Virus record (IMG/VR): IMGVR_UViG_3300007171_000004
Coordinates: 64,001-128,000 of that record
Strand: one strand, 5' to 3'
DNA from: a virus
Lineage: Duplodnaviria; Caudoviricetes
DNA length: 64,000 nucleotides
The notes beneath the pieces are model-generated. The model ran no database searches. It was not told where the DNA came from and was given only the letters and a program-made list of their open reading frames with translations. The position numbers and the translations under genes were made by a program. Below, piece by piece: positions 1 through 60,499 of this stretch. How positions within the stretch are numbered: the first letter of the stretch is position 1; the number at the start of each line of letters is the position of its first letter.

Positions 1-475
1 AAGTTTTACCAGAACCACTTGGGCCTAATAATAAGATATTATATTTATCATTATAGTTAGTTTGATATGTAGCTCTAATATGTTCGTATACAGTCAGGCT
101 AATTCTCTTTTTAGCTTCATCTTGTCCAATTACTTTTTTATTTAAAGAATCATAAAAATATTTTGGACTTAAATGATTATAAGAACGTTTCCCTTTCATG
201 GCATTATATTGTTGTCTTGCCATAGGAATAAGATCGAAAATGTTATTCTTAAGATCTTCGCCTGATTTTTCGTCGTGGATATTTAGGAGTACTGATAAGA
301 GTTTGCCGTTAAGCTCCATCTGACCAAGAGTACTACCTACTTGAAAACAAGAATAATGATCATCGCAGAATTTAATGGCATCGCTCTCTTGAAATAGATT
401 GAAATTATCTATAATAGTATGAGCTGCCTTCTTATTACAGAACGAACATCTATTCTGTACTGTTATTTCTCTCAT
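1..475 (-). CDS. clpX: ClpX-like AAA+ unfoldase, N-terminal part (continues off the left edge; absent from ORF track)
   Basis: Manual translation from ATG at 475: [16 protein letters not shown]...FCDDHYSC...[30 protein letters not shown]...[15 protein letters not shown]. This shows the CSFC zinc-binding start, the VIGQxxAK ClpX motif and Walker A. No stop before base 1. Confidence 0.88.
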
Positions 476-481
476 TAGTGA

Positions 482-1366
482 TTATTGTACAGAATGTTTC
501 TTGTAATAATCCATAATAAGCTTTTGAACGTCTCTTTCTGGATACCAATTTCCCGGAGTTTGTACTAACTTCATTGTATGTATTTTCTCCAAATCATATT
601 TTCTTTCAAACCCTGCTAAAAATTGTATTGAAATAGCTTTAATATTAGATAAAACATCTTCAAGAGATAAATGCTCGCACAAAGTATCTAAGAATTGTTT
701 CTTTGATATAATAAAAGCTTTTTGTTCTGCATTAAAATCATTTTCTTTTTCAGCATAAAAATCATCATCAAGAACAGCTCTCATGAGAACTAAATCCCAG
801 AAGAATTTTTGATCTTCTCTTGGAGTCAATTGTTTAGCAACAGTTGACACTTCTTTCGATGGATGTTCTCTCAATTCATCAGAACTTTCAGAAAGAAATC
901 TATCAAACTTTGGAACTAAAGCATTTTCTCTTCTCTCATATGAACTTTTGCCAGATCCAGAAGAATATTGCACTTCAGTTGTTGCGGATTTAGCATATGG
1001 AGTATGAGAAAGAGTATAGCCCTGCATAGCTTTTAATGCATTTTCTCTATTTTGCATCAATTGTTCAGGTGTATGAAAAAATTCTTTAACAACATCAGCA
1101 TCTTTAATTTTACCAAGTAATTTAGCTTCAAATTGATATTTAGGAATTCTAAGCTCTTTGTGTCCGTAAGGAATAGAAAGATATCCTGGTAATGGTAAAT
1201 AATCTTTTGAATGTTCTTGTAAAATAGCGCCTAAAGTAGGGTTAATAAAGGCAATTTCGTTAATTGTTTTGCCAGATAGATCAACTACATCATCTTCATG
1301 AGAGAATTGTCGTCTATATACGGTGTTTCTATTTTTTTCTGATCTACTTAAGTTAAATGGTTCCAT
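482..1366 (-). CDS. Hypothetical protein (294 aa), directly upstream of clpX
   Basis: Long ORF ending 6 nt before the clpX ATG; no recognised motif. Confidence 0.75.
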   Translation of the reverse strand: MEPFNLSRSEKNRNTVYRRQFSHEDDVVDLSGKTINEIAFINPTLGAILQEHSKDYLPLPGYLSIPYGHKELRIPKYQFEAKLLGKIKDADVVKEFFHTPEQLMQNRENALKAMQGYTLSHTPYAKSATTEVQYSSGSGKSSYERRENALVPKFDRFLSESSDELREHPSKEVSTVAKQLTPREDQKFFWDLVLMRAVLDDDFYAEKENDFNAEQKAFIISKKQFLDTLCEHLSLEDVLSNIKAISIQFLAGFERKYDLEKIHTMKLVQTPGNWYPERDVQKLIMDYYKKHSVQ

Positions 1367-1472
1367 ATCTTTTATTTACAAATTCCTTAGAAAATTATCC
1401 TTGAATCACAGGTTATAATATTTATTTTTCAAGAATATTAGGATGTATTCTTGTATTTGAGAGGAAATTAAA

Positions 1473-1679
1473 ATGGCATTACCCGACAACAACCAAAACA
1501 GAGGCAAAGGAAATTGGCAGATCCACTTGTACAATCCTAGTGAGAAGATCGGCCCTATTTCCGGTAATCTAGTAGTTGGTAAAGACTTTCATGTAATTTA
1601 TGCTGACGATAGACTTACAGTTTGTTTAGCTAATGTACCAAGTCAAAATGTAGCTTATGTTTTAAATTTGAAGGACTAA
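1473..1679 (+). CDS. Hypothetical protein (68 aa)
   Basis: GAGGA Shine-Dalgarno before ATG; first gene of a coupled run. Confidence 0.7.
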   Translation: MALPDNNQNRGKGNWQIHLYNPSEKIGPISGNLVVGKDFHVIYADDRLTVCLANVPSQNVAYVLNLKD

Positions 1680-1683
1680 TATT

Positions 1684-1956
1684 ATGTGGATTAAACTTGC
1701 TAAGAACAAAGATGAAATTGGAGATGTTAAGTTAATAAAGAAGTTAGCTGAAACTGCCATTCGTAGTTTATTGTTCAAGCAAGGCCACTATAATCCTTCA
1801 GAGCATGACGTTAATTGGAGAGTTAAGCGAGTTCTTGAAGAAATTATGGAGGAATATGGCAATTTAGAAGATGTAAGAGCTAAGGGGACAATTTACCTTA
1901 AACCTTATGTGGAAAAAATTGCCTATAAAATTTTTAAGAACAGAAAGAAAGATTAA
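1684..1956 (+). CDS. Hypothetical protein (90 aa)
   Basis: ORF tightly packed between its neighbours. Confidence 0.7.
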   Translation: MWIKLAKNKDEIGDVKLIKKLAETAIRSLLFKQGHYNPSEHDVNWRVKRVLEEIMEEYGNLEDVRAKGTIYLKPYVEKIAYKIFKNRKKD

Positions 1957-3549: not shown

Positions 3550-4500
3550 ATGGATAGCTTCGACCCTAATAAAATTATTGACTTTTCTAAAAATTATTAT
3601 GAGATTTTAGGAATTAATTCTGAGGATCTACCTAATGGGAAAAATAGAGCTGCTAAAGTTGAATGTAGTAATATTTTAGACAAAGCATTTAGAAATAAAG
3701 CTAGAACTTGTCATCCTGATTTTGGTGGGACTAAGGAAGCTTTTTTAGATATTGTTAGAGCCAGAAGAATTTTAGAAGATCCCTATTTACGAGATATTTA
3801 TGATGGCAAAGAACAAAAGCCAGAATTTTCAAACAATAGCGAATTTACTGTAGACTGGTCAAAAATTGGTAACTATAGAAAAGGCACACCAGAAGATACA
3901 GTAGGTTTTAGTTTATTCTTTGAAATTGTAGAAATCAAAGAAAATCTTAATATTGTTCCAGCTTTTATTCCTAAGTCTGCGGATCACAATTATGAATGGG
4001 ATTTTGCATTAGCTGAACAAAAGGTCAAACTTTCCCTATCTATTGTTAACGATGAGGATGAAGTATTAAGATTAACAGATTCATCAAAAATGGAAGAATC
4101 TTTACCATTTAAAATTTATATCTGTATTCCAAGAGCTAGTTTATCAATCTCTCGCAATGATGGATCTATTCAGGCAGCTTACAATGACTTCAATCTTTTA
4201 GAAACTACTTCTTTAAATGTTGCCAAAGAATATATTAGTTGTGGATTAAGTAAAGATTTAGAGCTTTTTAGGTCAGGCGAATTACAAGCTAAAAAAAGAG
4301 AAGAAGATAAGAAAAATAATCAAAGTAATTGGATAAGTGGAGATAAAATGAAAACTATCGACAAAAGCCAGCTTGATTATATCTTAAAATTAAAATCTTT
4401 CAATGTTACACCAGACGAAAATGCTGCTGATTTCTTGGAAAAATTACCCACAGAATCAAGGAACACATCACAAGAAGACACTCCTGAACTGCCATTTTGA
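3550..4500 (+). CDS. J-domain (DnaJ class C) protein with unknown C-terminal domain
   Basis: NYYEILGI...AFRNKARTCHPDFGGTKEAFLDIVRARRILEDP...RDIYD is a J-domain with intact HPD. No G/F region or zinc finger. Confidence 0.85.
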   Translation: MDSFDPNKIIDFSKNYYEILGINSEDLPNGKNRAAKVECSNILDKAFRNKARTCHPDFGGTKEAFLDIVRARRILEDPYLRDIYDGKEQKPEFSNNSEFTVDWSKIGNYRKGTPEDTVGFSLFFEIVEIKENLNIVPAFIPKSADHNYEWDFALAEQKVKLSLSIVNDEDEVLRLTDSSKMEESLPFKIYICIPRASLSISRNDGSIQAAYNDFNLLETTSLNVAKEYISCGLSKDLELFRSGELQAKKREEDKKNNQSNWISGDKMKTIDKSQLDYILKLKSFNVTPDENAADFLEKLPTESRNTSQEDTPELPF

Positions 4501-43200: not shown

Positions 43201-46200
43201 CAAGGAAGAATTTATAACATCCAAGTGTACAACAGAGCCTTATCCTTCTCTGAAATACAAGAAAATTACACAGCATATGCAAGTAAATTCGGAAAATCAG
43301 GTATTAAATTCTTATTAGAGAGCTCATCGTTAAGAAATTTAAATACACCTCAACCGCCATCAATTATATCTGCAGAGAATTTACCATCTCATACATTCAA
43401 TAATATCTTCTATGATAAATTTGATTATGGATTAAATCTAACATTAGGAGATACAGATTTTTATGAATTTGCATCTGATTTTGGTATTCAACAACTTGGC
43501 ATGTACAACTCTTGGCTCTATCCTATGGGCTTTAATAATGATCCAGGGGCTAAATACTCTTTCAATATTGGATTAAATTCTTTCTTAGATTTTCCAGGCG
43601 CTCCAATTACAAACACTGCAAGCTTTGAAAGAAATGGTATATATAGAGCACCAAGCAGCCCAGGAAATAAAGTAATTGCATATAACGTAAATTATGCAAG
43701 AGGAACAAACTTCTTCTACTCTGGATTCTTAAAAACTAATCTATATTATGAAACAACAGGTCTTACAGGTCTTGGTATAGGTATTCAAGGGGACGTAAAA
43801 TTAGGTTACTTTGCAGTTATTGATGTTAGAAATGGTACTGGCGAAACTGCTGCATTCCAATTAAGAAAAGACATTAATAATACAGTACCTCTAGCAACTG
43901 ACACCTCAATCACAATTCAAGCAGATAGATGGTATAGAATTAGCTTTACATGGTCTTCTGCTGGCCTTATTATTGCAAAACTTTATGATGGGGTTGGAGT
44001 ACTCCTTTCAACATTAACAGTTACAGATACATCATACACCTCTGGATATCTAGGAATTACAAGTTTCTCATTAAGCTCTTATGATAACTTGACAAATATA
44101 TTCAATCTTTCTTTTAGTCCTTCAGCAATTACAACAGCGGAAGCATTGAATAATAATAACGTTATAATCCCTGGAAATGTAAATCTTCTTTCTGGGACAA
44201 TTTCTAAGACTCTTGTAACTAACGGCTTATCTTTACATTATGATATTGGAAACAGCTCATCTTATAATGGAACTTCAACAATAACAGACCTTCAGGGAAA
44301 TTATAACGGAACAATTTCTGGAAGTCCAGTTCTTTACAATACATATGGAAAATATTTAGAGTTAAATAGTAGCAGTAATATCACTCTAAGTACTCTTCCT
44401 GCAACATTTTGGAATAATGCTTCTTGGACAGTTTCTTTCTGGGTGTGGGGGAATAATCTTTCAGCAACTTCAATTTATTTATTAATTCACGGAACGGCAG
44501 GAATTAATAACAGCTGGCTGCATTTAAGAATTAATACTACAAGAAGTATTACCTTTGGAATGTGGAATAATGATTTAAATTCTGTAAGTTTATTAGAACA
44601 TAACAGATGGCATTATATAACATTTAGATTTGATAAAACTAATCTTACTAAATCTATCTATATAGATGGTAAATTAGATGCCACTTCTTCATCAAATGCA
44701 TATATAGGTACTGGTACAAATACAATTTTATTTAGCCCTTTTAGTGGTAGGTTTGCTAAATTTGAAGCATACAATAGAGCACTTCAACCGCAAGAAATTA
44801 ACCAGAATTACATGGCTAATAAAGATAGATTTGGTAACCACTATCTTATTCCTAAATTCTATGAACAGTTTGAATCGACAAGCATTTTCACAGAGGGCGA
44901 TTTAGATCATTACATAAGATTGATTGATTATGGTCCTGGTTATGGTATTAATGCATTATTTACCCCTCCTTATATGGCTGGTTATGTTTCTGCAGCTGGA
45001 TGGACAGGTTATGGATTAGCAAGAGTACCAGGCGAGTCTTTCAAAATTGTAAACACATCTTTTAGCTATCTTTCTGATTCTAATTTCTTTTGGTCTGGTT
45101 GGCTAAAAGTACAGCCTAATTATCAAACTTCTTCTATTTCTGGATTAGGTTTTGGAATACAATCTTCTAATGTTCTTGGATATTTTGCTGTAATTGATAT
45201 AAGAAATGGTACAGGATCTTCAGCAGCGTTCCAATTAAGAAAAGACATCTATTCTGTACCATTAGTAACAGCAACAAATATTACGATAGTTCAAGATGAA
45301 TGGTATAGAATTACAATCACTTGGAATAATAGCTTAATAACTGTAAATCTTCATAATAAATTTGGAGATATCATTTCTACTTTAACAACAACAGATTATT
45401 CATATACTAGCGGAAAAGTGGGAATTGTTTCGTATTCTAATGCTTCCTTTGATAACTTTACAAACCTTACATATTTAACGATTTCTAGGGCAAAAGTAAG
45501 GCCTGATTTAATATCTGACAATCTACAATTCTACTATTCTCCATCAAATTTAGAATCATATCAAGGAACTGGGAATGCTTTGATAGATATGTCAAAAAAC
45601 TATGACATTATTAAAACAGGGCTAATTGTTCATCTTGAAGCTGGAAACAAATCTTCATATCCCGGTTCTGGTAATATTTGGTATAGTTTAGTAGGAAATG
45701 CATATGGAGAGCTGATTAACAATGTTGGTTTTGTAGATAATTATAAAGCTAGTTATTTTACATTAAATGGCACTAATCAATACATTCAATTAAACAATTT
45801 TACTTTTACTCAATCTTCTTCAGCAAATCAGTATACAATTATTATATCTGCAAAATTAAATTCAACATCATCTTCTAGAAGGCAATTAATATCTCCTGAC
45901 AATGCTGGTTTTGATTGGGGATTTGGAGCTGGAGATGGAACTAAATTCTCAATCTTTACTGGAGATAATATACAAACAGGAAGAAACCAAGACACTAATT
46001 GGCACATCTTCGCTGGACAATGGAGCTCTACTGGTACTAAACTATATATAGATGATGTAATTGATATCAATACTACTACAATTGGTTATGATTCAAGTAT
46101 TAATGTAACAAATATCGGTAGAAATCCAAGCTTTGGGGAATATTGGCATGGAACTGTATCAACTGTTTTAATTTATGATAGAATTTTAACAACACAAGAA

Positions 46201-48705: not shown

Positions 48706-48774
48706 TGTATAAAAAAGGATAACTAAGAACTATTTGTAGAAAATTACTATTATACTTCTTGTGAGGAACAATAT

Positions 48775-50901: not shown

Positions 50902-51921
50902 ATGCCTCTTAATAATAACCTTTACGGTGTATATAAGACCCTCAGAATTGGTGGGACTTCGTACATCGTTGAAAATGCATCTAGAAATAGATCGATGGAA
51001 GTTAGCCCTAAGAGCTACGTCCAAGGAACTCCTCTTTCGGCTATCTTGGACATTGGTGGCGTAACAGAAGACATTTCGATCCAAGCTCCAATTCTTGTCG
51101 GTGGTGCTTCTGCTCATGACGGTAGATCGCTTGCTAATACAAAGATTACTGAAATTCTTTCTCCTTCGACAGCTACATTGCCATTGCTTCAAAATGCAAA
51201 CTTTAGAGTTTCTGAGGGTGGAGCTTCGGTTTCCATGTCTCTTATGTCTGATGGTTCGGCTGCATCTTCGCTTGCTGGTTACTTCCAGTTAGTCAATAGC
51301 CCAATTCCTGCTTTGAGCCCAGTTTCTGCTGGTGGTCCTACAAGAGTTGCAAGATTCTACGACTTCCGTGTAAACATCGGTGGTAGAACATTCTTCGTTA
51401 TTGAAGCGAACATTGAAGTCAAGTCCCAAGTTGACAAGAAGTACTTCCTCGTTCCTAATGCTACATCGACCAACATTATGGATGAAACCGGACAAGGTGA
51501 GCTTGTTACCATTCCTAATACAGGTGGTACACAATACTCCTTCGGTAACCAATTCCCATTTATTGGTATCACTGGTGTAGAAATCTCCGGTGGTGGTAAG
51601 GCTGCTGTTCTTTTACAAGACCTTAACTCTGACGGTGACTTCACTGACTATACCGCAGGTACAACTGATGAATCTATCAACCTTACCTACGGTATCAACG
51701 AGCCATCTTCTGGAGACCTTACACTTCAAATCCCTGGTGGAGCTGTTTATGAATCAGTTGCGTTCTCCTTTGAGATCTACAACCCATCAACTGATGCATG
51801 GGTCAGCCTTCTCCCATCACTCAACCTTACAAGATCGGTTATCAACAAGTCTAACTTCGAGATTACCAACGGTCTTCTTACTGTAGACTTCGGATTCACC
51901 TGCTGGGTTACCACAGCTTAG
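50902..51921 (+). CDS. Putative major tail-tube-like protein B (339 aa), high-expression codon bias
   Basis: Paralog of the preceding gene; AGGTGG SD; strong preference for AAC/TAC/TTC/ATC/GAC/GGT codons, unlike its neighbours. Confidence 0.55.
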   Translation: MPLNNNLYGVYKTLRIGGTSYIVENASRNRSMEVSPKSYVQGTPLSAILDIGGVTEDISIQAPILVGGASAHDGRSLANTKITEILSPSTATLPLLQNANFRVSEGGASVSMSLMSDGSAASSLAGYFQLVNSPIPALSPVSAGGPTRVARFYDFRVNIGGRTFFVIEANIEVKSQVDKKYFLVPNATSTNIMDETGQGELVTIPNTGGTQYSFGNQFPFIGITGVEISGGGKAAVLLQDLNSDGDFTDYTAGTTDESINLTYGINEPSSGDLTLQIPGGAVYESVAFSFEIYNPSTDAWVSLLPSLNLTRSVINKSNFEITNGLLTVDFGFTCWVTTA

Positions 51922-52331
51922 TGATTTTTGCATAATTTACAAGATTCGCATAAACTTTTGTTTATCTTATATGAGTAAATTATCAAAATAGATCCTATAA
52001 CTAGTAACAAATTAAACACTAGGTTGCTCTTATTTATATGTTCATGTAATGTATGGATAAGAGCAACCATTCCAAACCCAACATAAAAATACAGAGATGC
52101 TTTGATTGATTTATGCCTTTTATATCCAAAGCACATAGTTAACAATCCTGAAATTCCTGATAACAACAATAAAATTAATTCAAGATTTTCATCTGCAAAC
52201 ATACTAATTCCCAATAAAGGCAAAAAGGTCATTAATATTGGCATCAATGTGCAGTGAATTGCACAAATAAAGGATGCAGAATATCCAAGCTTTTCAAATA
52301 AATTTATAAGAATACGATTTCCTGTGAACAT
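51918..52331 (-). CDS. MerC-family membrane protein (137 aa)
   Basis: LGYSASFICAIHCTLMPIL matches the MerC-domain ASxxCAIHCxxxP motif. Four hydrophobic segments, GYKRHK loop, Cys/His-rich tail CESCKLCKNH. Confidence 0.78.
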   Translation of the reverse strand: MFTGNRILINLFEKLGYSASFICAIHCTLMPILMTFLPLLGISMFADENLELILLLLSGISGLLTMCFGYKRHKSIKASLYFYVGFGMVALIHTLHEHINKSNLVFNLLLVIGSILIIYSYKINKSLCESCKLCKNH

Positions 52332-52893
52332 CTGTTAATCCATTTTCTATAATAGCTTGAATATGATCTTTAGTTAAATATCCCTTGTTTGATAAAAATT
52401 TGTAATTGGGATATTGTTCATCCAAATCTTTCATTAAGCGACACTGAATAACTTTAGCTACTATGCTTGCACATGCTACCACAAAACTAGTCGAATCGGC
52501 TTTAGGTAGCATGTGCATATTTTTTAAACTTATATCAGAAGCTTGATCTAAGATAAATAAATCTACTTTATGATATTTTAATACCTCTAAAGCAGATTCT
52601 TCTATAATATCTTTATTTGCCCGATTTATTCCATGTTTATCGATGAAATATTGATCACGAGTAGAAACATGAATCTTTATAGCCTTTTTTAAAATTTGCT
52701 CATATAATTCATCTCTTTTTTTCTCTGATAGTTTTTTAGAATCATTAACACCAGGGATAAAAACAGTAGAATCCATCAATACACATGCTGCAACAATACT
52801 ACCTGCACAAGATCCTCTACCACATTCATCTATACCAGCAATATATTCTCCATGAACGCTTCTTAAATCATCATCATAGTTTTTGAGTGACAT
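52294..52893 (-). CDS. rnhB: Ribonuclease HII
   Basis: AGIDECGRGSCAG, VNDSKKLSEKKR, KADS.S..VACASIVAKV, NKGY.T..H. Start placed at ATG 52893. Confidence 0.92.
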   Translation of the reverse strand: MSLKNYDDDLRSVHGEYIAGIDECGRGSCAGSIVAACVLMDSTVFIPGVNDSKKLSEKKRDELYEQILKKAIKIHVSTRDQYFIDKHGINRANKDIIEESALEVLKYHKVDLFILDQASDISLKNMHMLPKADSTSFVVACASIVAKVIQCRLMKDLDEQYPNYKFLSNKGYLTKDHIQAIIENGLTDVHRKSYSYKFI

Positions 52894-54607
52894 GCTCTTT
52901 TGCCTTTTTGTAAACAATTTGACTATATTCTTTTATATCATCATTTGTAGATTCTAGCAAGCCGGTCAACATTTCAATATTATTAGACTCGCTAGATTCT
53001 TGAAGAGATTTTTTCATATCAGTTAAATCTTCTACTATATGTCGTGGCAATACATCTGTTCTCAACAATTCCTCAATCTGAATAATCCTGTCTGTCAATT
53101 GAGATTTAATGTTAGAAATTTCCAAGAATAATTTATCATCATTTTTATTATTTTCAGCTTCTTGGATTAGCTTTTGAATTTGGTCGCTTGTCAAAGATGA
53201 TGAACCTTCAAGAGTAAGATATTTTGAAATTCCAGAATCCTCATCTTTTGCCATAACTGAAAGAATACCATTAGAATCAATTTCAAATGTAACTTCGATT
53301 TTTGGCACACCTCTAGAAGCTTTTTTAATACCATCTAATGTAATCTTTCCCAATAAATGATTAAAAACTGCCTGTGGTCTTTCGCCTTGATAAATTGAGA
53401 CATCTACTTTTTCCTGATTATCAAAAGCTGTAGTAAATGTTTCTGTTACTTCTGCTGGAATTGATGAGTTTCTTTTAATCATAACATTCATCAAACCACC
53501 CTGAGTTTCAATTCCAAGAGATAAGGGAGTGACATCTACAAGAAAAATCACCTTATCACTATTTCCAGACAAAATATTTGCTTGAATAGCTGCTCCGATT
53601 GCCACAGCCTCATCTGGGTTAATAGACTTGTTAGGATTCTTGTTTGTCCATGCTTTTACAGATTCAGATATATATGGAACTCTAGTTGACCCACCTACAA
53701 AAACTACTTCATCAATATCATGAAACTTAAGACCAGCATCAAAAAGTGCTTGATCTACACATTTTTTAGTTTTATCAATTAAACTTTGAATTTTACCTTG
53801 AAACTCTTCCCTATTAATTGTTACTTTTAAATTAATTGGTTTGCCATCGATAAATTCATAATAAGGTATAGATACATTAGTTTCTGTTTTGAATGATAGT
53901 TCTTTTTTAGCTTTTTCTGCTGCATTTCTTAATCTAGGATCATTACTTTGATTAACACCATGTTTTTCTACAATTAGATCTACTAAACATTTATCAAAGT
54001 CATCGCCACCTAATTCTGTGTCACCTGAGGTACTTAAAACATGAAAATCCATTCCTTCAGCGATTTTAAGTACAGTAACATCAAAAGTTCCTCCGCCTAA
54101 ATCGTATACAAGAATAGTTTGATTAAGATTCTTATCTAAACCATAAGCAAGAGAAGCAGCTGTAGGTTCATTTATGATTCTGGAAACTCTAAGACCAGCT
54201 AATTCTGCAGCAACTTTAGTGGCTTTTCTTTGGTCATTATTAAAATATGCAGGAACGGTTATAACAGCAGAATCGATAGTGTCACCAATAAATGTTTCTG
54301 CATCTTTTTTAAGTTTTGATAAAATAAATGAGGAGATTTGCTCCGGTGAATATTCTTTATTATTTAGGACATATGTAAAATTTTTGCCCATATTTCTTTT
54401 AACAGATCTTATAGTTTCAGCTGGATTTTCATTTTCATTATCAACTGCAGAAAGACCAACTAAAATTTCTTGCCCGGCAAATGACACAACAGATGGAGTA
54501 GTGCGAAATCCTTCTTCATTTGTTAAAACTTGTGGATTACCGTTATTATCAATATAAGCTACTACAGAATTAGTTGTTCCTAAATCAATTCCTACTGTTA
54601 CTGGCAT
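52874..54607 (-). CDS. dnaK: Hsp70 chaperone DnaK (577 aa)
   Basis: GIDLGTTNS, AVITVPAYFNNDQR, INEPTAASLAYG, VYDLGGGTFDV, FVGGSTRVP, DVTPLSLG, GVPKIEVTFEIDSNGIL. GAGG SD. Confidence 0.97.
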   Translation of the reverse strand: MPVTVGIDLGTTNSVVAYIDNNGNPQVLTNEEGFRTTPSVVSFAGQEILVGLSAVDNENENPAETIRSVKRNMGKNFTYVLNNKEYSPEQISSFILSKLKKDAETFIGDTIDSAVITVPAYFNNDQRKATKVAAELAGLRVSRIINEPTAASLAYGLDKNLNQTILVYDLGGGTFDVTVLKIAEGMDFHVLSTSGDTELGGDDFDKCLVDLIVEKHGVNQSNDPRLRNAAEKAKKELSFKTETNVSIPYYEFIDGKPINLKVTINREEFQGKIQSLIDKTKKCVDQALFDAGLKFHDIDEVVFVGGSTRVPYISESVKAWTNKNPNKSINPDEAVAIGAAIQANILSGNSDKVIFLVDVTPLSLGIETQGGLMNVMIKRNSSIPAEVTETFTTAFDNQEKVDVSIYQGERPQAVFNHLLGKITLDGIKKASRGVPKIEVTFEIDSNGILSVMAKDEDSGISKYLTLEGSSSLTSDQIQKLIQEAENNKNDDKLFLEISNIKSQLTDRIIQIEELLRTDVLPRHIVEDLTDMKKSLQESSESNNIEMLTGLLESTNDDIKEYSQIVYKKAKEHVTQKL

Positions 54608-54807: not shown

Positions 54808-54837
54808 AAAAAGGAGCTTAACTTTAAGCTCCTTTTT
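54808..54837. terminator. Bidirectional intrinsic terminator between the small ORF and the helicase
   Basis: AAAAAGGAGCTTA-ACTT-TAAGCTCCTTTTT, a perfect 13-bp inverted repeat. Confidence 0.88.
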
Positions 54838-54838: not shown

Positions 54839-56680
54839 TTATTCAGCCTTTATGGGATAATATTGCCATGCTCTTTCATTCCTATAAACTCTTGCTCTTA
54901 AATTTGAATGAGTTTTAAGGTTTTTATGATTAACTTTAAAATCAACAATAATAGCATTAGGTTTTCCATTTTCAGCAGATTGTTTAGCATCCATACCTAC
55001 ACATCTCAAAACTCTTCCAACTTGCTGATACGTAGTGATTGGAGAACTGCTACTTCCTGCTAATATAAGAGCTGTAATTTTGGGAGCATCAACACCAACA
55101 TTTGCCCATTGAGTTGCTATAAGAATAATTTCATTGTTTTCAACTTTATTTAGCATCCTTCGGCGATAATTTTTCTCTTCATCTGATGGATCTAATTCCC
55201 CCTTATCCCCTCCTGGCACAAAAACTGCATTTTCAATAATCTCTTCTAAAAGATTACCATGCTCCATTCTTTCTACTAAAATAAGGGTCGGAGTACCATT
55301 ATCTTTAAATGTCTCAGCAAATTGTTTAATTCTATAGTTTCTTTCAGTGTTTTTGATTATATTAAGTTCATAAGCTTCTTGATATGTTTGAGCTTCGTGA
55401 TGTTCTTTAATTTCACATTGGAAGATTTTAGGTGGTACTAGAAAACCTCTTTCCACTAAATCACTTGCAGAAACTTCAATAATTTTTTGACCTAACGTAC
55501 CTTCAATTCGAATTTCTTGATTGTCAGTACGATAGGGAGTAGCTGAAAGTCCTCCACGAATAGTTGCATTTACAGCATATTTACCAATCTCTTCTATAAT
55601 AACAGATGCTATATGTGCCTCGTCAACAATATAAGCCTGACATGCAGTAACTAAATCTCTAATTTTGTTTTTATCTTCTGAAGTTGCCATTCTGTTTTGA
55701 TATACAGAATCTGCCTTTTTGAAGTTGTTATTTTGAAGTTTTATTAATGAGTCATATTTTCTCGAATATTCTTTAAGCTTTAGATCTAAATCTTTTTGAG
55801 CTTTATTTAATATTCTTTGATTTTTAGTATCCAAATTATCCTGAAATAAATTAGTTAGTTCTTCAAATTTAGCTTGTAATGAATCAATTTCTAACTGAAG
55901 ACTTTTAAGTTGGTTTTTAGCACTTCTCTTAGCAATAGAAAGATCTTTAAGTGCTTTCTCATATTCTTCTTCGATTTGAGCATTTGATTTCCTAACACCA
56001 TCTGAAGGAGCTATGTCAACAACCTTGTATTGACTTTCAACATACTTCTTATCATATGCGCCTAAAACTGTTTGATAAGTTACTACGTTTATGCCTTCCA
56101 TGTTTAAATCACAAATGCTATCACCTGCGATTCCAACTTTTACTGGTTTTCCATCTAACCTTAAGTACTTTTCAAATTCTTTTTTAGTTTGTTTGAGAAG
56201 TTCAAGAGCTGGAACTACAAAAATAACTGGAGCAACTTTAAGCTTTGAAAAAATATAACAAGAAGTCATAGTTTTACCAGCACCAGTAGCTAATGAAAGT
56301 ATGCCACCATTTTGCTTATAAAACTCATCTCCTGCTTTGATTTGATAATCTCTTAATGTCTTTGGACCAAAATCACAAGTAAATGGGTAATTTCGTTGAA
56401 TATCGGGCCTTTTATCGACCGTTTCAAATTCAACATTAAGATTCTGCAATAGATTCTTGACTTTTGGATATAAACCTATTGGAAATGTGCCGAATTTCTT
56501 GTTGTAAAGTGATATTTTGCCATCCCATTGTCCAAGTTTATATTTTGGACTCCAATCGGCATTTGGTTGTATATAAGATAATTCATCTCTTATTACAGAA
56601 TGTAGGCTATATAAAACATGAGGGTCAGATAGATTAAAGTCTATCTGACACCTTTCATTAAATAAGTTTATTACTATCAC
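54839..56680 (-). CDS. Superfamily 2 DNA helicase, UvsW-like, with a long coiled-coil insertion (613 aa, GTG start)
   Basis: N-terminal YKLGQWDGKISLY, LRDYQ, ATGAGKT, TYQT, VDEAH, GLSATP, LVERMEHG, ATQWANVGVDAP, QQVGRVLR. Confidence 0.85.
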   Translation of the reverse strand: MIVINLFNERCQIDFNLSDPHVLYSLHSVIRDELSYIQPNADWSPKYKLGQWDGKISLYNKKFGTFPIGLYPKVKNLLQNLNVEFETVDKRPDIQRNYPFTCDFGPKTLRDYQIKAGDEFYKQNGGILSLATGAGKTMTSCYIFSKLKVAPVIFVVPALELLKQTKKEFEKYLRLDGKPVKVGIAGDSICDLNMEGINVVTYQTVLGAYDKKYVESQYKVVDIAPSDGVRKSNAQIEEEYEKALKDLSIAKRSAKNQLKSLQLEIDSLQAKFEELTNLFQDNLDTKNQRILNKAQKDLDLKLKEYSRKYDSLIKLQNNNFKKADSVYQNRMATSEDKNKIRDLVTACQAYIVDEAHIASVIIEEIGKYAVNATIRGGLSATPYRTDNQEIRIEGTLGQKIIEVSASDLVERGFLVPPKIFQCEIKEHHEAQTYQEAYELNIIKNTERNYRIKQFAETFKDNGTPTLILVERMEHGNLLEEIIENAVFVPGGDKGELDPSDEEKNYRRRMLNKVENNEIILIATQWANVGVDAPKITALILAGSSSSPITTYQQVGRVLRCVGMDAKQSAENGKPNAIIVDFKVNHKNLKTHSNLRARVYRNERAWQYYPIKAE

Positions 56681-56704: not shown

Positions 56705-57148
56705 TTATGCTGCAAATTTCATAATTCCAATTTGAACATCTCTACTAGATTTATTCTCAATCATTCCAAGAGTTGTGACAATCAAATCTTTAACAATTTC
56801 ATATTCAGAATCAGAGAGTTCAATATTATTCTTGCTTGCTACAATCTTAATAAATCTAAGAAATGAATCAGCTTTATCATTTTCATCAAAAGTGCCGTCA
56901 ACACAAGATTTTAAACCCTCTGCCCAAGCATCAATAATAATAACTGCTTTTGGCCCTAATTGAGCCGCTAATACACTTTTGACAATTAATAGAGCTTTAT
57001 AAACAAAATCACTTTCTCTTGTAAATCTTCTTGCAATGTGAGGAGCCAAAATAATTACCAGAGCTGTGCAAATTAATAAAGTTAAATGTTCTTGAACCGC
57101 ATGTAGTAATAGTTGCTTAATTTTTAAAGCAGTGAATAGTTGAGACAT
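56705..57148 (-). CDS. Membrane-anchored hypothetical protein (147 aa), possibly holin-like
   Basis: One clear N-terminal hydrophobic helix (LTLLICTALVIILAP) followed by helical soluble region. The holin idea is weak inference. Confidence 0.55.
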   Translation of the reverse strand: MSQLFTALKIKQLLLHAVQEHLTLLICTALVIILAPHIARRFTRESDFVYKALLIVKSVLAAQLGPKAVIIIDAWAEGLKSCVDGTFDENDKADSFLRFIKIVASKNNIELSDSEYEIVKDLIVTTLGMIENKSSRDVQIGIMKFAA

Positions 57149-57149: not shown

Positions 57150-57365
57150 CTAGCAATCCTTAGCGATTACATCATCTCCTGTATCGGATGCTTCTGGGTC
57201 AAGAAATACATCAGCAACGACAGGAATTTCCAAAACATCCTTTACTACAATAGATTGAGCTTCAGGCGCATCGGTGGTCTCTTCAACTTCCGACGCTTGT
57301 ACTTCTTCACCTTCTACATCTGTAAACTGTTCAATTCTTCCGGTAGCACGTTTAATCATAGACAT
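57150..57365 (-). CDS. Small acidic hypothetical protein (71 aa)
   Basis: AGGAG SD; very Asp/Glu-rich. Confidence 0.7.
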   Translation of the reverse strand: MSMIKRATGRIEQFTDVEGEEVQASEVEETTDAPEAQSIVVKDVLEIPVVADVFLDPEASDTGDDVIAKDC

Positions 57366-57376: not shown

Positions 57377-58378
57377 CTATTTTAAAGTAGACACATAATT
57401 TTGCAAGATATCTTTTTGTTCTTGAGACAGATTCTTAGGTGTTTTATACACTACATTAATTACGAAATCTGTTCTTGCGTTCTCATTCTTAAATAAGCCC
57501 TTTTGAGATAAATTAAACTTTTGACCATTAGTAGTATATTCTTTCATTTTAATTGTAGTTTTACCGCCTTCAGGCAAATCAACTTCAACATCTTTACCTA
57601 ATATTGCTACTACTGGATCAATTTCAAAATCAAGTTTTACATTACCATTTCTATCAAATTCAAAATGTCCAACATCTGTAAGTTCAAAATCTATAATTAC
57701 TGGTCCAGGATCAATTGTTCTATTCTCTTGATTACCCTTACCTTTAATAAATTGAGAATTGAAAATCGATCCTTTTTTAACTTCTATTTCAATTGTTTCT
57801 GAAACTAATTTTAAGCCAGAAGAATTACAATCAGAACAATTTGATGTATATCTAGAACCTTTGCCTTGACAAGAACCGCAAGGAGTAATGAATTGCTGTG
57901 TAAACATACCTTGGCGGATTTGCTTAACTACATTTCCTGCACCATTGCATTCTTTACAAGTAATTTTTTCTCCTAAACCACCATTGCCATTACACTTCAC
58001 GCAAAAAACATTTCTATTAAATGTGACATTTTTTTTGAAATTTTTGAAAGATTCTGCTAATGTAATGTTAACTCTAATAGAAACTGGAGAATTTTCCATC
58101 CTATTCTGTCTCTGATGCCCGAAGGGATTAAAGTCAAAATCAAATCCAAATGGCATTCCTCCTCCAAAAGGACTACCATGCTGCTCTGCTTCATACCTAG
58201 CTTTTTTCTGAGGATCTGTCAAAATAGAATAAGCCTCACCTATTTGCTTGAATTTATCTTCAGCATCGGGAGACTTATTAACATCTGGATGATATTCTCT
58301 AGCTAATTTACGATAAGCTGATTTAATTTCATCAGCTGTAGCATTTTCATTTAAACCAAGAACTTCATATGGATTCAT
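57377..58378 (-). CDS. dnaJ: DnaJ (class A) co-chaperone (333 aa)
   Basis: J-domain with YHPD, short G/F region, four zinc motifs (CVKCNGNG, CKECNGAG, CGSCQGKG, CSDCNSSG) and C-terminal domains. Confidence 0.95.
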   Translation of the reverse strand: MNPYEVLGLNENATADEIKSAYRKLAREYHPDVNKSPDAEDKFKQIGEAYSILTDPQKKARYEAEQHGSPFGGGMPFGFDFDFNPFGHQRQNRMENSPVSIRVNITLAESFKNFKKNVTFNRNVFCVKCNGNGGLGEKITCKECNGAGNVVKQIRQGMFTQQFITPCGSCQGKGSRYTSNCSDCNSSGLKLVSETIEIEVKKGSIFNSQFIKGKGNQENRTIDPGPVIIDFELTDVGHFEFDRNGNVKLDFEIDPVVAILGKDVEVDLPEGGKTTIKMKEYTTNGQKFNLSQKGLFKNENARTDFVINVVYKTPKNLSQEQKDILQNYVSTLK

Positions 58379-58386
58379 GTATGTTA

Positions 58387-59064
58387 TTATACATTAATTT
58401 TTTGCAGCAAAGATTTAATTTTATTGGATGGGCATACTGAATTTTCACCAATAGCAATATCTGCATGTTCGCCTGTAACACCAATAACTAAGCCGTAAAC
58501 CAATCCATCTGTACCAATAACCATACCACCAGAGATACCTTGCAAAATATCAGCATCAATAAAAATTAAATCTGACCAAGCTGGAGAATCTGCATTTCGA
58601 ACCGTTTGATGAATATTAGAAATTCTACCAACAGTTGCAGTATCATGCCATCCCTCTGGCGATCCAATAGCTGCAATAATATCTCCTACTTCAGCAGTGT
58701 CAGAATCTGCTAAACTGACTGCTGTGACAGAATCTGGAATATCTTCGCAATAAAGAATCGCTACGTCTAGATTTGGCTGGGAATCAATTACTCTTGCTCC
58801 AAATGAATTTTTACCATCAAAACTAACTTGCAACCCCATGTAATTATTAATAAGTTTAGGAGGAGCAACGTGTGATGCTGTAGCAATTAACCCATTGCCA
58901 ATATGAAATCCACTACCAGTCCATTGCTCTTTACCATCTTTAACAAAAATTGTACATGATGCTGCAATTGCATTTTGGATGACAATCTTAATTGGATCAT
59001 CAACTTTATTTTGAGCTTCTCTTAAGAACATCTCAACCATATTTGCATCTAAACGTAGCGACAT
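58387..59064 (-). CDS. Trypsin-like serine protease (S1C/HtrA-like catalytic domain, no PDZ, no signal peptide)
   Basis: GSGF, triad His in ATASHV, Asp in LDVAIL, Ser in QGISGG; GDIIAAIGSP; IGRIS. Confidence 0.88.
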   Translation of the reverse strand: MSLRLDANMVEMFLREAQNKVDDPIKIVIQNAIAASCTIFVKDGKEQWTGSGFHIGNGLIATASHVAPPKLINNYMGLQVSFDGKNSFGARVIDSQPNLDVAILYCEDIPDSVTAVSLADSDTAEVGDIIAAIGSPEGWHDTATVGRISNIHQTVRNADSPAWSDLIFIDADILQGISGGMVIGTDGLVYGLVIGVTGEHADIAIGENSVCPSNKIKSLLQKINV

Positions 59065-59068
59065 AAAT

Positions 59069-59533
59069 TTAATACCCTAGAATTTTATACTCAATCTCAT
59101 CAAATGTCAAAGTGCCAAATCTTCTTGAATCATCAGAATGAAATGTGTTATCACCCAAAACATAATAATGATTTTTTGGAACTCTTGTAATTGTCAATAA
59201 AGAACCATAGACTTTTTTAAACTCTAATAATTCTTTTGTGTCGTAGCCTTCAAGTAAAATAGCGTTTGTATTTTCTAAGTCAAGCAAAGAAGCATAACTA
59301 TCTCCACCTACATACTTGACTCTTTTTATAATCGCATCTTCACCCTCTAGATTACAAACAACAATATCATTTTTCTTGATATCTTTAGTTTTATAACCAA
59401 TTAATATTTGACCATGATGAAGAGTGGGATACATCGAATTGCCTCTTACAACAATTACTCTGAATGGCCTGTAGTATATTAATAACAAACAAGCCAAACT
59501 CAATACCGTAGTCAAAATAAATTTAAGCTTCAT
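59069..59533 (-). CDS. lepB: Signal peptidase I (S26)
   Basis: N-terminal TM helix; catalytic Ser in GNSMYPTL; catalytic Lys in IIKRV; YYVLGDN...SDDSRRFG box. Confidence 0.92.
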   Translation of the reverse strand: MKLKFILTTVLSLACLLLIYYRPFRVIVVRGNSMYPTLHHGQILIGYKTKDIKKNDIVVCNLEGEDAIIKRVKYVGGDSYASLLDLENTNAILLEGYDTKELLEFKKVYGSLLTITRVPKNHYYVLGDNTFHSDDSRRFGTLTFDEIEYKILGY

Positions 59534-59584
59534 AGTCCTCTCCTTTTATGCGTGTAGAGAAGGACATTTTTGTTTTTTAAGCCC

Positions 59585-60499
59585 TTAATTAAATTTCATA
59601 TTAGCGTATTTAGGGACACCAAATCCCCAATCACCAGTTCTTCCAACTGTGATGTTTTGAGATTCTAATGAAGAAATATCATCTAATCTCTGAAGCATAT
59701 CCTTATAATCACAAATAGGCTTCAAGTTTGGATTTTTTCTTGTCCATGCTAACATCAACGCACAGACTCCAGCAATAAATGGACAAGCTTGTGATGTGCC
59801 ATTTAATTTAGCATATCCATTGTCCTTATAAGTTGAATAAATATCTACTCCAGGAGCAATCGCATCCACTTCTGGACCATGACTTGAAAAATGCGCCATG
59901 TTCCCTCTAGCATCTAAAGCAGCAACTGCAATCACTTCTTCAAATCTAGCTGGATAATTTACAGCTCCAGCGTCATTGCCAGCAGCAGCAATCATAATTA
60001 CCCCAGCATCTGCAGCTCTCTTAATAGCAGTATAGAGTTCTGGAGGAGCAGAAGATGCACCCAAAGACATGCTGATAATATCCACATTGCAATCTACAGC
60101 AGCATTAATTCCAGCAATAATATTATCATAAGATCCATTACCACCATTACCCAAAACCTTGACTGGAAGAATTTTTGCTTTAGGAGCTACACCAACAACG
60201 CCAAAATCATTATTAGCTGCTGCAATGATTCCAGCACAGTGAGTTCCGTGGCCATTCCAGTCCTTATCATCTGATTCACCTGAAAAATTTAAAGCTGGCA
60301 ATAGATTATCTCTTAAATCGGAGTGGTTCCATACACCAGTGTCGAGAACAGCAATTGTAATACCATCGCCCTCAGTATAAGCCCAAGCACCAGGAATATT
60401 GGATTGCATCAAGCCCCAGTCTGTAGTTTGACTGAGAGTTTGCATCACATGAATCGGTTGCATCTCAATATCTGGAATAAACTGAATTTCTTTATCCAT
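59585..60499 (-). CDS. Subtilisin-family (S8) serine protease, no signal peptide (304 aa)
   Basis: Asp in AVLDTG, His in GHGTHCAG, oxyanion Asn in AAAGND, Ser in NGTSQACP. GGAG SD. Confidence 0.95.
   Translation of the reverse strand: MDKEIQFIPDIEMQPIHVMQTLSQTTDWGLMQSNIPGAWAYTEGDGITIAVLDTGVWNHSDLRDNLLPALNFSGESDDKDWNGHGTHCAGIIAAANNDFGVVGVAPKAKILPVKVLGNGGNGSYDNIIAGINAAVDCNVDIISMSLGASSAPPELYTAIKRAADAGVIMIAAAGNDAGAVNYPARFEEVIAVAALDARGNMAHFSSHGPEVDAIAPGVDIYSTYKDNGYAKLNGTSQACPFIAGVCALMLAWTRKNPNLKPICDYKDMLQRLDDISSLESQNITVGRTGDWGFGVPKYANMKFN

Follow-up and report, generated by a model that had tools for sequence, protein, structure and literature searches.

We have analysed a window of 64,000 nt, the whole stretch of DNA under study, which derives from a 300.5-kb IMG/VR phage contig (an uncultured water phage) with a CheckV completeness of 84%. 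Portal and TerL genes lie on the same single-piece contig, at 193-209 kb, and together with the IMG/VR record and CheckV they establish that the contig is viral. The window encodes a ClpX-like N-terminus, a J-protein, DnaK, a class A DnaJ and three serine proteases, of types S8, S26 and S1; a ClpP homologue and a third J-protein are encoded outside it in the same genome. Every gene named in a preliminary description of this DNA was present, and coordinates for dnaK and dnaJ can now be added. The HMM searches which that description had called for matched PF00012, PF00226, PF00082, PF13365 and PF10502, while the full ClpX-like protein scored 254 bits on the NCBIfam ClpX model NF003745, below its cut-off of 359. 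The features are as follows.

2..475, minus strand: N-terminal 158 aa of a ClpX-like AAA+ unfoldase (full ORF 450 aa, genome 63123-64475, partly outside the window)
482..1366, minus strand: 294-aa protein without assigned function, encoded on the clpX strand 6 nt upstream of that gene
3550..4500, plus strand: J-protein J1 (PF00226, 31.6 bits against a cut-off of 27.8; HPD present)
16834..48774, plus strand: variable island of ten ORFs (139-2663 aa) with lectin-type domains (Laminin_G_3, PA14/GLEYA, weak tail-fibre PHROG matches)
51918..52331, minus strand: MerC-like membrane protein (PF03203, 67 bits), last gene of the dnaK unit, syntenic in relatives
52294..52917, minus strand: RNase HII (PF01351, 102 bits), directly after dnaK
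52874..54607, minus strand: DnaK (Hsp70), 577 aa (PF00012, 592 bits; NF001413, 649.7 against a cut-off of 648)
54808..54837, minus strand: terminator-like hairpin after uvsW with a U run behind it (-17.3 kcal/mol, z -5.3)
54839..56680, minus strand: UvsW-type helicase (PF04851, PF21241; phrog_16)
56705..57148, minus strand: 147-aa protein with two membrane segments predicted from hydropathy, kept in the row (24-37% identity, syntenic)
57150..57365, minus strand: conserved 71-aa ORF after dnaJ (56% identity to the copy in relative G002; also in L007-L009, L087 and L088), without a Pfam match
57377..58378, minus strand: class A DnaJ, 333 aa (PF00226, 90.7 bits; PF00684, 38.1 bits; PF01556, 64.2 bits)
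58387..59064, minus strand: S1C HtrA/DegP-type protease domain, 225 aa (PF13365, 70.9 bits; His65, Asp100, Ser178)
59069..59533, minus strand: minimal S26 type I signal peptidase, 154 aa (PF10502; TIGR02227, 77.5 bits against a cut-off of 47; Ser33, Lys70)
59535..59565, minus strand: hairpin pairing the Shine-Dalgarno of the S26 gene (architecture shared by five lineages, stem sequences different; z -1.6 to -3.5)
59585..60499, minus strand: S8 subtilase of the intracellular (ISP-like) type (PF00082, 193 bits; Asp53, His84, Ser236)
60557..64000, minus strand: C-terminal 1147 aa of a giant 2894-aa protein with Ig-like repeats (genome 124557-133241)

The three proteases are consecutive between 58387 and 60499 and retain their catalytic residues, as had been described, and these residues are unchanged across the six genomes compared, at 34-57% identity. 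In S8, the N-terminal FIP[DE] motif, the D-H-S triad and the oxyanion Asn are all invariant, and the top PDB match is the intracellular serine protease 7y6m. On the one hand, S8 resembles the bacterial ISPs of B. clausii and Planococcus (PMC6220982) in having no signal peptide, no I9 prodomain and a short N-terminal extension whose residues 7-10 make up a proline-centred motif. On the other hand, its motif is F-I-P-[DE] and not the [LVI]-[IFLV]-P-[YFH] of the bacterial enzymes (PMC6220982). S8 proteases about 40% identical to it occur in Bacillus and Moorella phages. S1 has a trypsin-fold protease domain with an invariant His-Asp-Ser triad, and its best PDB matches are the protease domains of DegP, DegQ and HtrA. 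It differs from these in having only 225 aa, with neither PDZ domains nor a signal peptide; accordingly, it would be cytoplasmic and devoid of the usual regulatory domain. The earlier observation that neither soluble protease has a signal peptide holds, as both S8 and S1 are without a hydrophobic N-terminus.

Residues 4-20 of the S26 enzyme form an N-terminal membrane anchor (the hydropathy of residues 1-19 is 2.04), and the enzyme's Ser33, Lys70 and GDN..SDDSRRFG box are invariant. Among solved structures, it matches S. aureus SpsB and further short signal peptidases best. It shares with the short Gram-positive-type enzymes (SipS/SpsB, MEROPS S26A) the single N-terminal anchor, the SM-PT serine, the K-R lysine and the GDN..S-DSR boxes, but it stands at the small end of their size range and is phage-encoded. 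A search of the isolate-phage collection gave matches only to dubious records without annotation. RNAalifold on a MAFFT alignment of the hairpin at its Shine-Dalgarno gave no consensus. The preliminary description had reasoned that such an enzyme implies exported phage substrates; to this we can add, by a heuristic search only, four phage ORFs with Sec-type signal peptides as candidate substrates.

Upstream of S8 lies the giant gene, whose Ig-like repeats resemble those of fibre and decoration PHROGs. It is probably structural, a call made solely from these repeats, and the earlier placement of the proteases directly downstream of a structural gene stands at that strength. A counterpart of 2860-3060 aa precedes S8 in relatives, so that a giant gene (about 2.9-3.1 kaa) is the constant neighbour of S8. 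From S8 to uvsW the intergenic gaps measure 1-51 nt, and no hairpin of that kind occurs ahead of the terminator-like one after uvsW. Considering that dnaK is parted from the protease-dnaJ unit by the UvsW gene and this strong terminator hairpin, and that RNase HII then follows dnaK, the row is not one dedicated operon. The function of UvsW is in DNA, not in proteostasis, and with UvsW and RNase HII interleaved and gyrase nearby, the genes may be neighbours because the genome order is frozen and not because they share a function. A TGTACAAT box is found at about 54627-54634, just before dnaK, and TGTA(C/T)AAT stands 8-25 nt before the dnaK start codon at all six loci. Four relatives carry an AGGA-N19-GAAT box pair between the giant gene and S8; upstream of the window's own S8, an AGGA box at the right spacing was not found. 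The looser pair AGG-N19/20-GAA shows an approximately 3-fold enrichment in the regions upstream of ORFs, among them ORFs of the head region beside the portal and terminase genes. The sole true metatranscriptome contained only small contigs, in which DNA carry-over is possible.

The order giant gene, S8, S26, S1, DnaJ, membrane protein, UvsW, DnaK recurs in 17 of the 29 IMG/VR loci that hold S26, on contigs of up to 358 kb, as well as in several metagenome contigs from JGI, ENA and NCBI. Protein identities are 30-59%, the related viral contigs with this order number at least 17, and one relative is collinear over 90 kb. The set is under purifying selection (dN/dS 0.016-0.08 against a 95%-identical relative). 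IMG/VR classes the record of one relative as a provirus.

DnaK belongs to a clade of short DnaKs from large metagenome contigs, which is separated by one bipartition from 77 cellular DnaKs (SH-aLRT 100, stem 0.41). Its best identity to the cellular DnaKs sampled is 43-50%, with no phylum favoured, and its origin is non-host; a comparison of phylogeny with hosts had been proposed earlier, and this is its outcome for DnaK. The class A DnaJ consists of a J domain, a CXXCXGXG zinc domain and a C-terminal domain, and the six genomes compared all keep its HPD and its four Cys motifs unchanged. GrpE was found neither in this phage nor in eight relatives, and GroEL/ES and Hsp20 were not found in this phage genome; the earlier suggestion to look for clpP, grpE and groEL elsewhere on the contig therefore yielded clpP only. 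The ORF at 52294..52917 encodes RNase HII and not GrpE.

The 158-aa ClpX fragment alone has no Pfam match. The best PDB matches of the full protein are ClpX chains (E 3e-52), and it keeps Walker A and B, the Arg finger and the IGF tripeptide. Records of six of the eight relatives contain ClpX (47-52% identity); among the ClpX sequences, IGF occurs in six of eight and the pore loop is invariant. The neighbouring 294-aa protein, which has a syntenic G002 homologue (29% identity), matched nothing in Pfam, PHROG, NCBIfam or Atlas. J1 accompanies clpX at 3-4 kb in six of the eight relatives (50-57% identity). Its N-terminal J domain has a fold match at Z 7.8 (65 residues at an rmsd of 2.2 A). Its C-terminal domain, conserved and of alpha/beta type, has weak fold matches only (Z 5-6.6), and the protein ends in a conserved P-x-L-P-[LFV].

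Phage-encoded unfoldases of ClpX type and peptidases of ClpP type are likewise known from Bacillus phage G (gp257/gp258; PMC12484599) and, as ClpX, ClpA and ClpP, from jumbo phages (Iyer et al. 2021, PMC7824862), and they have been proposed to act in assembly or protein turnover. Jumbo-phage J-proteins and ClpX in particular have been proposed as assembly aids (PMC7824862). In phage G, however, clpP and clpX lie side by side and the virions were found to contain both proteins (PMC12484599), whereas here the genes are 230 kb apart. The present ClpX also differs from those systems in lacking the RKH loop and having a GFQG pore loop, and ClpP was found in only one of the eight relatives. The moraphages, freshwater uncultured jumbo phages of up to 307 kb, encode DnaK and DnaJ, with PhoH, UvsW, a Clp ATPase and a sigma factor among their core genes (Perez-Hernandez et al. 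2025, PMC12619734). Our phage is, like them, an uncultured aquatic jumbo phage with DnaK and DnaJ. Seven moraphage DnaKs, however, were placed inside Flavobacteriaceae and called recent transfers (PMC12619734), whereas the DnaK described here stands in a clade separate from every cellular DnaK sampled, those of Flavobacteriales among them. A further difference is that the Pfam models for T4-type sheath, gp25 and baseplate-J have no match in this phage; with Pfam, no sheath, baseplate or T4-type prohead-protease genes were identified. ClpX, ClpP and signal peptidase are unmentioned in that paper, and 'protease' appears only in VOG names of its core-gene list (PMC12619734). RB43 Rki (Perrody et al. 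2012, as cited in PMC12619734) and other phage J-proteins have unrelated C-terminal parts that presumably steer Hsp70, as here; the present phage differs in that it encodes a DnaK and a complete class A DnaJ as well, and that the C-terminal domain of its J1 is without a clear fold match.

The notion that the genes are recent host captures, or a chimeric assembly with bacterial DNA, and have no phage function could be drawn from the families, all typical of cellular housekeeping, and from the one relative recorded as a provirus. It is refuted by synteny and phylogeny, and we regard it as scarcely credible. Neither a normal bacterial chromosome nor host-identical genes were found: portal and terminase stand on the single-piece contig with 84% completeness, the order is repeated across many independent assemblies, dN/dS is 0.02-0.08, and DnaK, in its own clade, is at most 50% identical to sampled cellular DnaKs. 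Considering the conserved order, the low dN/dS and the separate DnaK clade, the set does not consist of recent host captures. That the chaperone and protease set is real, under selection and the phage's own, the core of the preliminary description, is upheld by the same evidence together with the invariant catalytic residues. Its further proposal of a folding and maturation line dedicated to the fibre proteins of 0.8-2.8 kaa that fill half the window (17-49 kb) has fared worse. These ORFs are huge, lectin-rich and in the same window, but their 31.9-kb island lies outside the conserved set and on the opposite strand from the protease, dnaJ and dnaK row. Between gyrA and a 134-aa ORF it is missing in three relatives (G002, L087 and L088; in G002 the two genes abut directly), all of which have ClpX, J1, DnaK, DnaJ and all three proteases in unchanged order. 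As an exclusive role, service to these fibres is contradicted, and we consider a line of this kind very improbable.

Host DnaK and DnaJ remodel the lambda P-DnaB complex and P1 RepA in replication. The phage DnaK and DnaJ could by analogy serve mainly to remodel phage DNA-replication complexes, with the proteases as unrelated neighbours; dnaJ and dnaK flank the UvsW gene, RNase HII follows dnaK, and gyrB/gyrA are a few kb away in relatives. However, dnaJ lies 8 nt from the S1 gene in a unit that begins behind a giant virion gene, neither a replication initiator nor a helicase loader was observed next to it, and DnaJs of class A bind substrates generally, so we find a replication role unlikely. 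Host take-over or counter-defence is a possibility that we hold as doubtful; the J-proteins, ClpX and the cytoplasmic proteases would then not serve phage assembly but would divert host chaperones and break down regulators or defence proteins of the host. The third J-protein starts with MWYKKA, a putative capsid-cargo tag, and may accordingly be injected. ClpX keeps its IGF loop although most relatives have no phage ClpP, so that it probably hijacks host ClpP. As cited in PMC12619734, the RB43 J-protein acts on host DnaK and sigma-32, and a bacterial NLR defence requires DnaJ. On the other hand, the protease-dnaJ unit ends a long same-strand run of giant virion-type genes and is not among early genes.

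We favour, at somewhat better than even confidence, a lineage-conserved, phage-owned proteostasis set in three separate modules that would fold, hold and quality-control the phage's own large virion proteins. Its timing, its clients and every biochemical step are what we infer. The first module, of late type, would follow the giant virion gene directly and comprise S8, S26, S1, DnaJ, two small proteins and, last, the UvsW gene; its intracellular-type subtilisin is probably made auto-inhibited. The second, dnaK-RNase HII-merC, would be transcribed separately, and the third would be the clpX/J-protein pair 50 kb away, joined in this phage by the ClpP homologue and the third J-protein. The phage would thereby supply its own Hsp70 cycle of DnaK and three J-proteins, with nucleotide exchange either host-provided or replaced by spontaneous release. 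The ClpX-like unfoldase would dock on ClpP, necessarily that of the host in most members. As host synthesis falls, the Hsp70 cycle and the unfoldase may fold, hold and quality-control very large beta-rich virion proteins. S8 and S1 would trim or clear phage or host proteins in the cytoplasm, and the substrates of the signal peptidase would be those few phage proteins that bear Sec signal peptides.

In the literature searched, we found no description of this gene arrangement or of a phage-encoded signal peptidase. Phage DnaK/DnaJ, ClpXP and S8 proteases have been published; what appears to be new is the conserved trio of proteases that includes signal peptidase I. Each component is of a known kind, and it is the arrangement and the phage signal peptidase that set this phage set apart.

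The window (positions 64001-128000) lies on a single contig of 300,536 bp, whose positions are given here as genome coordinates. This contig has a GC content of 32.8%, carries five tRNAs near 291-293 kb, and is held in IMG/VR as a linear virus record with a CheckV completeness of 84%. On the same contig as the window, we located two further genes:

genome 193488-195893, portal gene
genome 205677-208892, large terminase gene

With both genes present, the contig is phage DNA, and the normal bacterial chromosome that the preliminary description had considered as a possible surrounding is not what flanks the window. The window also encodes PhoH, gyrB/gyrA, and a helicase of the UvsW type, as well as successive giant ORFs in which Ig-like, Laminin_G_3, and PA14/GLEYA domains occur. 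Near-identical DNA occurs in metagenomes from estuary, reservoir, river, and other aquatic sources, and the region from dnaK to S8 had no megablast match in the isolate-phage collection. A Macro-domain protein (genome 59695-60468(-), or L001:4695-5468:- within a genome stretch; PF01661, 25.6 bits) is encoded upstream of the clpX region; its counterpart in the related contig G002 is 55% identical. A 322-aa phage protein (genome 268177-269145(-), or L177:1177-2145:-) combines a prepilin-type N-terminal methylation motif with DUF1559 (PF07963 and PF07596). Such a pairing is characteristic of Planctomycetota and Verrucomicrobiota, and the protein is a possible clue to the host, as well as a possible phage pseudopilin.

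The window carries three serine proteases next to chaperone genes in the following arrangement:

59585-60499, minus strand, S8 (subtilase), catalytic residues D53/H84/S236
59069-59533, minus strand, S26 (signal peptidase I), catalytic residues S33/K70
58387-59064, minus strand, S1 (HtrA/DegP-type protease), catalytic residues H65/D100/S178
57377-58378, minus strand, class A DnaJ with J, zinc, and C-terminal domains above the Pfam cut-offs
52874-54607, minus strand, DnaK, 577 aa, PF00012 at 592 bits

The spacing is 51 nt between S8 and S26, 4 nt between S26 and S1, and 8 nt between S1 and dnaJ. Two earlier claims hold here: three consecutive proteases have intact catalytic residues, the triads and the dyad being readable in the sequence, and the soluble proteases S8 and S1 have no signal peptide, their N-termini not being hydrophobic. 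In related contigs, the genes follow one order, namely a giant gene of 2.9-3.1 kaa, S8, S26, S1, DnaJ, an ORF of ~71 aa, a membrane protein of ~147 aa, UvsW, DnaK, RNase HII, and MerC. This order was read from the DNA in five loci (L007-L009, L087, and L088) and from the gene table in one (the 204-kb P0006 contig); RNase HII is missing in some loci. When IMG/VR was scanned with the S26 alignment, 29 loci were found, 17 of them in row order, on contigs of up to 358 kb. The row proteins are 30-59% identical to those of the window, and the catalytic residues, HPD, and zinc motifs are invariant across the six compared sequences. Against a 95%-identical relative, dN/dS was 0.016-0.08 for S8, S26, S1, DnaJ, the membrane protein, DnaK, and UvsW. 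G002 (94 kb) runs collinear with roughly 42-133 kb of the genome and carries ClpX (51% identity), a 294-aa protein, the second J-protein J1 (51%), PhoH, gyrB/gyrA, and the entire protease-chaperone row.

Across six genomes, S8 shows no variation at D53, H84, S236, or the oxyanion residue N175. Among solved structures, it is best matched by an intracellular serine protease, and neither a signal peptide nor a prodomain is present. Bacterial intracellular subtilisins (ISPs) carry an inhibitory [LVI]-[IFLV]-P-[YFH] motif (LIPY/F motif) at the N-terminus. S8 has an invariant F-I-P-[DE] at residues 7-10, at the same distance from the N-terminus, which departs from that motif at positions 1 and 4. 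S8 is probably an auto-inhibited cytoplasmic zymogen, despite these two deviations from the ISP motif. S8 proteases of ~40% identity are common in Bacillus and Moorella phages. S1 (225 aa; PF13365, 70.9 bits) has invariant H65, D100, and S178 residues and the features of a trypsin fold. It has no PDZ match and scores 78.9 against the TIGR02037 cut-off of 416, and is an HtrA-type protease domain without PDZ or envelope-export signal.

S26 exceeds the TIGR02227 cut-off (77.5 against 47), its S33, K70, and GDN..SDDSRRFG are invariant, and a hydrophobic segment at residues 4-20 provides an N-terminal membrane anchor; by sequence, S26 belongs to the short Gram-positive SPase I type and is a minimal, anchored member of it. 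In the isolate-phage collection, it matched only unannotated records, which are probably host-contaminated, and the literature searched, itself a limited collection, held no description of a phage or viral signal peptidase. As candidate S26 substrates, a home-made hydropathy and A-x-A rule picked four phage ORFs:

genome 22603-23028, plus strand, candidate exported ORF with Sec-type signal peptide
genome 33686-34159, minus strand, candidate exported ORF with Sec-type signal peptide
genome 34156-34488, minus strand, candidate exported ORF with Sec-type signal peptide
genome 267762-268121, candidate exported ORF with Sec-type signal peptide

The three small ORFs at 22603-23028 and 33686-34488 have textbook Sec signals ending in A/S-F-A/S-Q and no family match.

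DnaK scores above the NF001413 cut-off (649.7 against 648) and below that of TIGR02350 (618 against 822). Its ATPase and linker motifs (GIDLGTT, IINEPTAA, DLGGGTFD, and DVTPLSLG) are all present and invariant over 15 clade members. A search returned more than 100 metagenomic proteins of 563-593 aa with 52-60% identity, many of them on contigs of 100-380 kb, and the nearest cellular DnaKs, among the best 80 of the first 600 pattern matches, were 43-50% identical and spread over many phyla. In a maximum-likelihood tree built with this cellular sample, 27 short DnaKs, for only some of which a phage context is demonstrated, formed one branch against 77 cellular sequences (SH-aLRT 100, stem 0.41). 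In this tree, which has Flavobacteriales MAGs among the 77 cellular sequences and holds no sequences of moraphages (the freshwater jumbo phages of PMC12619734), DnaK did not nest inside Flavobacteriaceae. The genes are not the host-identical recent captures that had been thought of as an alternative, given the separate DnaK clade, the synteny of the row, and the dN/dS values.

A cognate GrpE encoded alongside DnaK, as in bacterial operons, was not found: PF01025 had no match in the 84%-complete contig and none above the cut-off in the records of eight relatives. The 207-aa ORF after dnaK was considered as GrpE and rejected, as it is RNase HII. The Pfam models of GroEL, GroES, and Hsp20 had no match in the contig either. 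Since the contig is 84% complete, the absence of GrpE, GroEL, GroES, Hsp20, and the structural markers is unproven. The proposal that clpP, grpE, and groEL be looked for elsewhere in the contig was borne out in part, as clpP was found but grpE and groEL were not found in these 84%. Behind dnaK and RNase HII, the row closes in all relatives with the gene of a MerC-family membrane protein (window 51918-52331(-); PF03203, 67 bits), and besides it no further mer genes were seen.

In addition to the class A DnaJ, the genome encodes two J-proteins, and two of the three are confirmed in relatives:

3550-4500, plus strand, J1, the second J-protein
genome 273818-274327 (L005:1441-1950:+ within a genome stretch), plus strand, third J-protein, 169 aa, starting MWYKKA

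In the class A DnaJ, PF00226, PF00684, and PF01556 are above their cut-offs, HPD and the four Cys motifs are invariant, and the Gly/Phe-rich linker is short; its score against the NCBIfam equivalog TIGR02349 is 236, under the cut-off of 377. J1 is found at 50-57% identity in relatives, always 3-4 kb from clpX. Its model (mean pLDDT 65) recovers the J domain; the C-terminal domain matched only common alpha/beta arrangements (Z 5-6.6), with no convincing fold, and the ESM Atlas gave no usable match for this domain or for the 294-aa protein. At the C-terminus of J1 (window 4450-4500), a conserved P-x-L-P-[LFV] tail stands behind a variable acidic stretch and could be a docking or degradation tag. 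The third J-protein, with its MWYKKA start, may be packaged and injected.

The gene named clpX in the preliminary description stands as that of a ClpX-like unfoldase, but window positions 2-475 encode only the first 158 residues of a complete 450-aa ORF, and this ORF remains below the equivalog cut-offs (NF003745, 254 against 359; TIGR00382, 228 against 371). ClpX is by far its best-matching family, and the ORF is clearly ClpX-like in sequence. The zinc ribbon (CxxC...C-x2-[HC]), Walker A/B, the Arg finger, and sensor-2 (GTRAL) are present in all eight phage sequences. The pore-1 loop reads GFQG or GYQG instead of GYVG, and there is no RKH loop at the aligned position. The IGF of the phage ClpX aligns with that of E. 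coli, which is the ClpP-docking loop; IGF is found in six of the eight ClpX sequences, with VSL instead in two near-identical relatives. ClpX is present in the records of six of eight relatives and is a core gene of the lineage. The genome also has a ClpP homologue:

genome about 294.1-294.8 kb, ClpP-family protein, 230 kb away, amid small ORFs and tRNAs

This protein (PF00574, 101.8 bits) has an intact Ser-His-Asp triad when aligned to a solved ClpP, and its top PHROG match is the ClpP-like head maturation protease family. Only one of the eight relatives has ClpP, and this copy, in the 358-kb relative G004 (C1:206392-206925), is much more canonical (PF00574, 227 bits, versus 102 bits in the window genome). 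The two are 36% identical. These differences in score and sequence suggest that clpP was acquired twice independently within the lineage. Most likely, the phage ClpX works with the host ClpP or alone.

From S8 through uvsW, the gaps are 1-51 nt, a hairpin with a U run (-17.3 kcal/mol, z -5.3) lies directly 3' of uvsW, and a TGTA(C/T)AAT box stands 8-25 nt before the dnaK start codon in six of six loci (TGTACAAT in the window). Accordingly read, S8 to uvsW probably form one transcription unit, and dnaK, RNase HII, and merC another of their own. The box resembles the TTGTACAA palindrome of the same genome. Relatives have a Cys-rich ORF of 118-126 aa between uvsW and dnaK; in the window (54608-54838(-)) and in L007, the terminator hairpin and non-coding DNA of about 190 nt take its place. 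Between the giant-gene stop and S8, four relatives share AGGA-N19-GAAT; in the window, the AGGA box is missing at this spacing upstream of S8, and GAAT alone is present. The strict motif has 11 matches genome-wide, of which 2 precede ORFs. Loosened to AGG-N19/20-GAA, the pattern shows about 3-fold enrichment in front of ORFs, among them head-region ORFs beside the portal and terminase genes, and this enrichment lends the two-box motif modest support. A promoter/terminator scan gave counts at chance level and missed the hairpin after uvsW, which was later confirmed by folding. In five lineages, a hairpin preceding the S26 gene (window 59535-59565(-)) pairs its Shine-Dalgarno; in single-sequence folds, the stem sequences differ and the shape is the same (z -1.6 to -3.5), with an A-rich tract before it. 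This hints that translation of the signal peptidase may be throttled. RNAalifold gave no consensus for the S26 leader because MAFFT leaves the stems unaligned. The region is present in one metatranscriptome as small contigs only, and two "RNA-Seq" runs are probably DNA.

Window positions 16834-48774 form a 31.9-kb block of ten fibre-like ORFs (Laminin_G_3, PA14/GLEYA) on the strand opposite to the row. In G002, the 134-aa ORF found at 48775 in the window lies 72 bp after gyrA, and the same is seen in L087 and L088, indicating that the block is a variable insertion. Different large ORFs occupy the site in another relative, and the site resembles a hot spot at which receptor-binding genes are exchanged. 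Since the set is kept in these three relatives, where the block is missing, it is not a line dedicated to the fibre proteins of the window, as had been proposed; the fibres of the block could be clients among others. The invariable neighbour upstream of S8 is the gene of 2.9-3.1 kaa, whose Ig-like repeats resemble fibre and decoration proteins, and which ends a 40-kb same-strand run of ORFs of 665-2894 aa. PHROGs gave nothing for the upstream ORFs of 1221, 1278, 967, 1400, and 665 aa, and a tail or baseplate identity is unconfirmed by Pfam or PHROGs. The Pfam models of the T4 prohead protease S77, tail sheath, gp25, and baseplate J had no match in the contig at its 84% completeness.

On balance, we consider it slightly better than an even chance that this is a phage-owned proteostasis set serving phage protein production, above all that of giant beta-rich virion proteins, in which the signal peptidase would handle the small exported phage set. 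The possibly injected J-protein, a ClpX that would dock on host ClpP, and the J-protein precedents in the literature would also suit a set for host take-over or counter-defence, a reading to which we give about one chance in five. The neighbouring UvsW, RNase HII, and gyrase genes point to remodelling of the replication complex, which seems a little less probable still. A fibre-specific version of the set is improbable in view of the relatives without the fibre island, and a mere passenger or artefact is refuted.

A narrower proposal, which we hold tentatively and regard as rather unlikely, is that S8, S26, S1, and DnaJ are a dedicated extracapsid maturation line for the giant tail/fibre protein encoded just upstream, plus secretion processing. 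Here, the 2.9-kaa chain, held by DnaJ and DnaK, would be trimmed by the ISP-like subtilisin together with the HtrA-like protease, and the phage signal peptidase would process exported phage proteins. If true, this would be a multi-protease virion-maturation/secretion system without a described counterpart in tailed phages.

Chaperones encoded by phages are generally regarded as sporadic extras of host origin. For freshwater jumbo phages, DnaK and DnaJ were described in 2025 (PMC12619734); also published are the ClpXP of phage G and, for jumbo phages more widely, ClpX, ClpP, and J-proteins (PMC12484599, PMC7824862). The finding is therefore known in kind. What appear to be new are a row of fixed order, with three different serine proteases, throughout the lineage; a signal peptidase I encoded by a phage; a separate clade of DnaK that comes without GrpE; and a ClpX with an IGF loop that is near-universal while ClpP is patchy. 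The moraphage core VOGs include T4-type tail sheath, gp25, and baseplate genes (PMC12619734), in a study that used VOG models. The Pfam models PF04984, PF04965, and PF04865 had no match here. The moraphage DnaK was nested in Flavobacteriaceae and read as a recent Flavobacteriales capture (PMC12619734), whereas the DnaK here forms its own clade without GrpE, moraphage sequences not being part of the comparison. Our result thus conflicts with the published view of the freshwater jumbo-phage DnaK.

In summary, a lineage of aquatic phage contigs of 100-360 kb has retained a single fixed set that is under strong purifying selection, and its ClpX probably uses the host ClpP. This makes testable how giant virion proteins are folded in a dying cell, whether signal-peptide processing is run by the phage, and whether an Hsp70 cycle can run without a cognate exchange factor.
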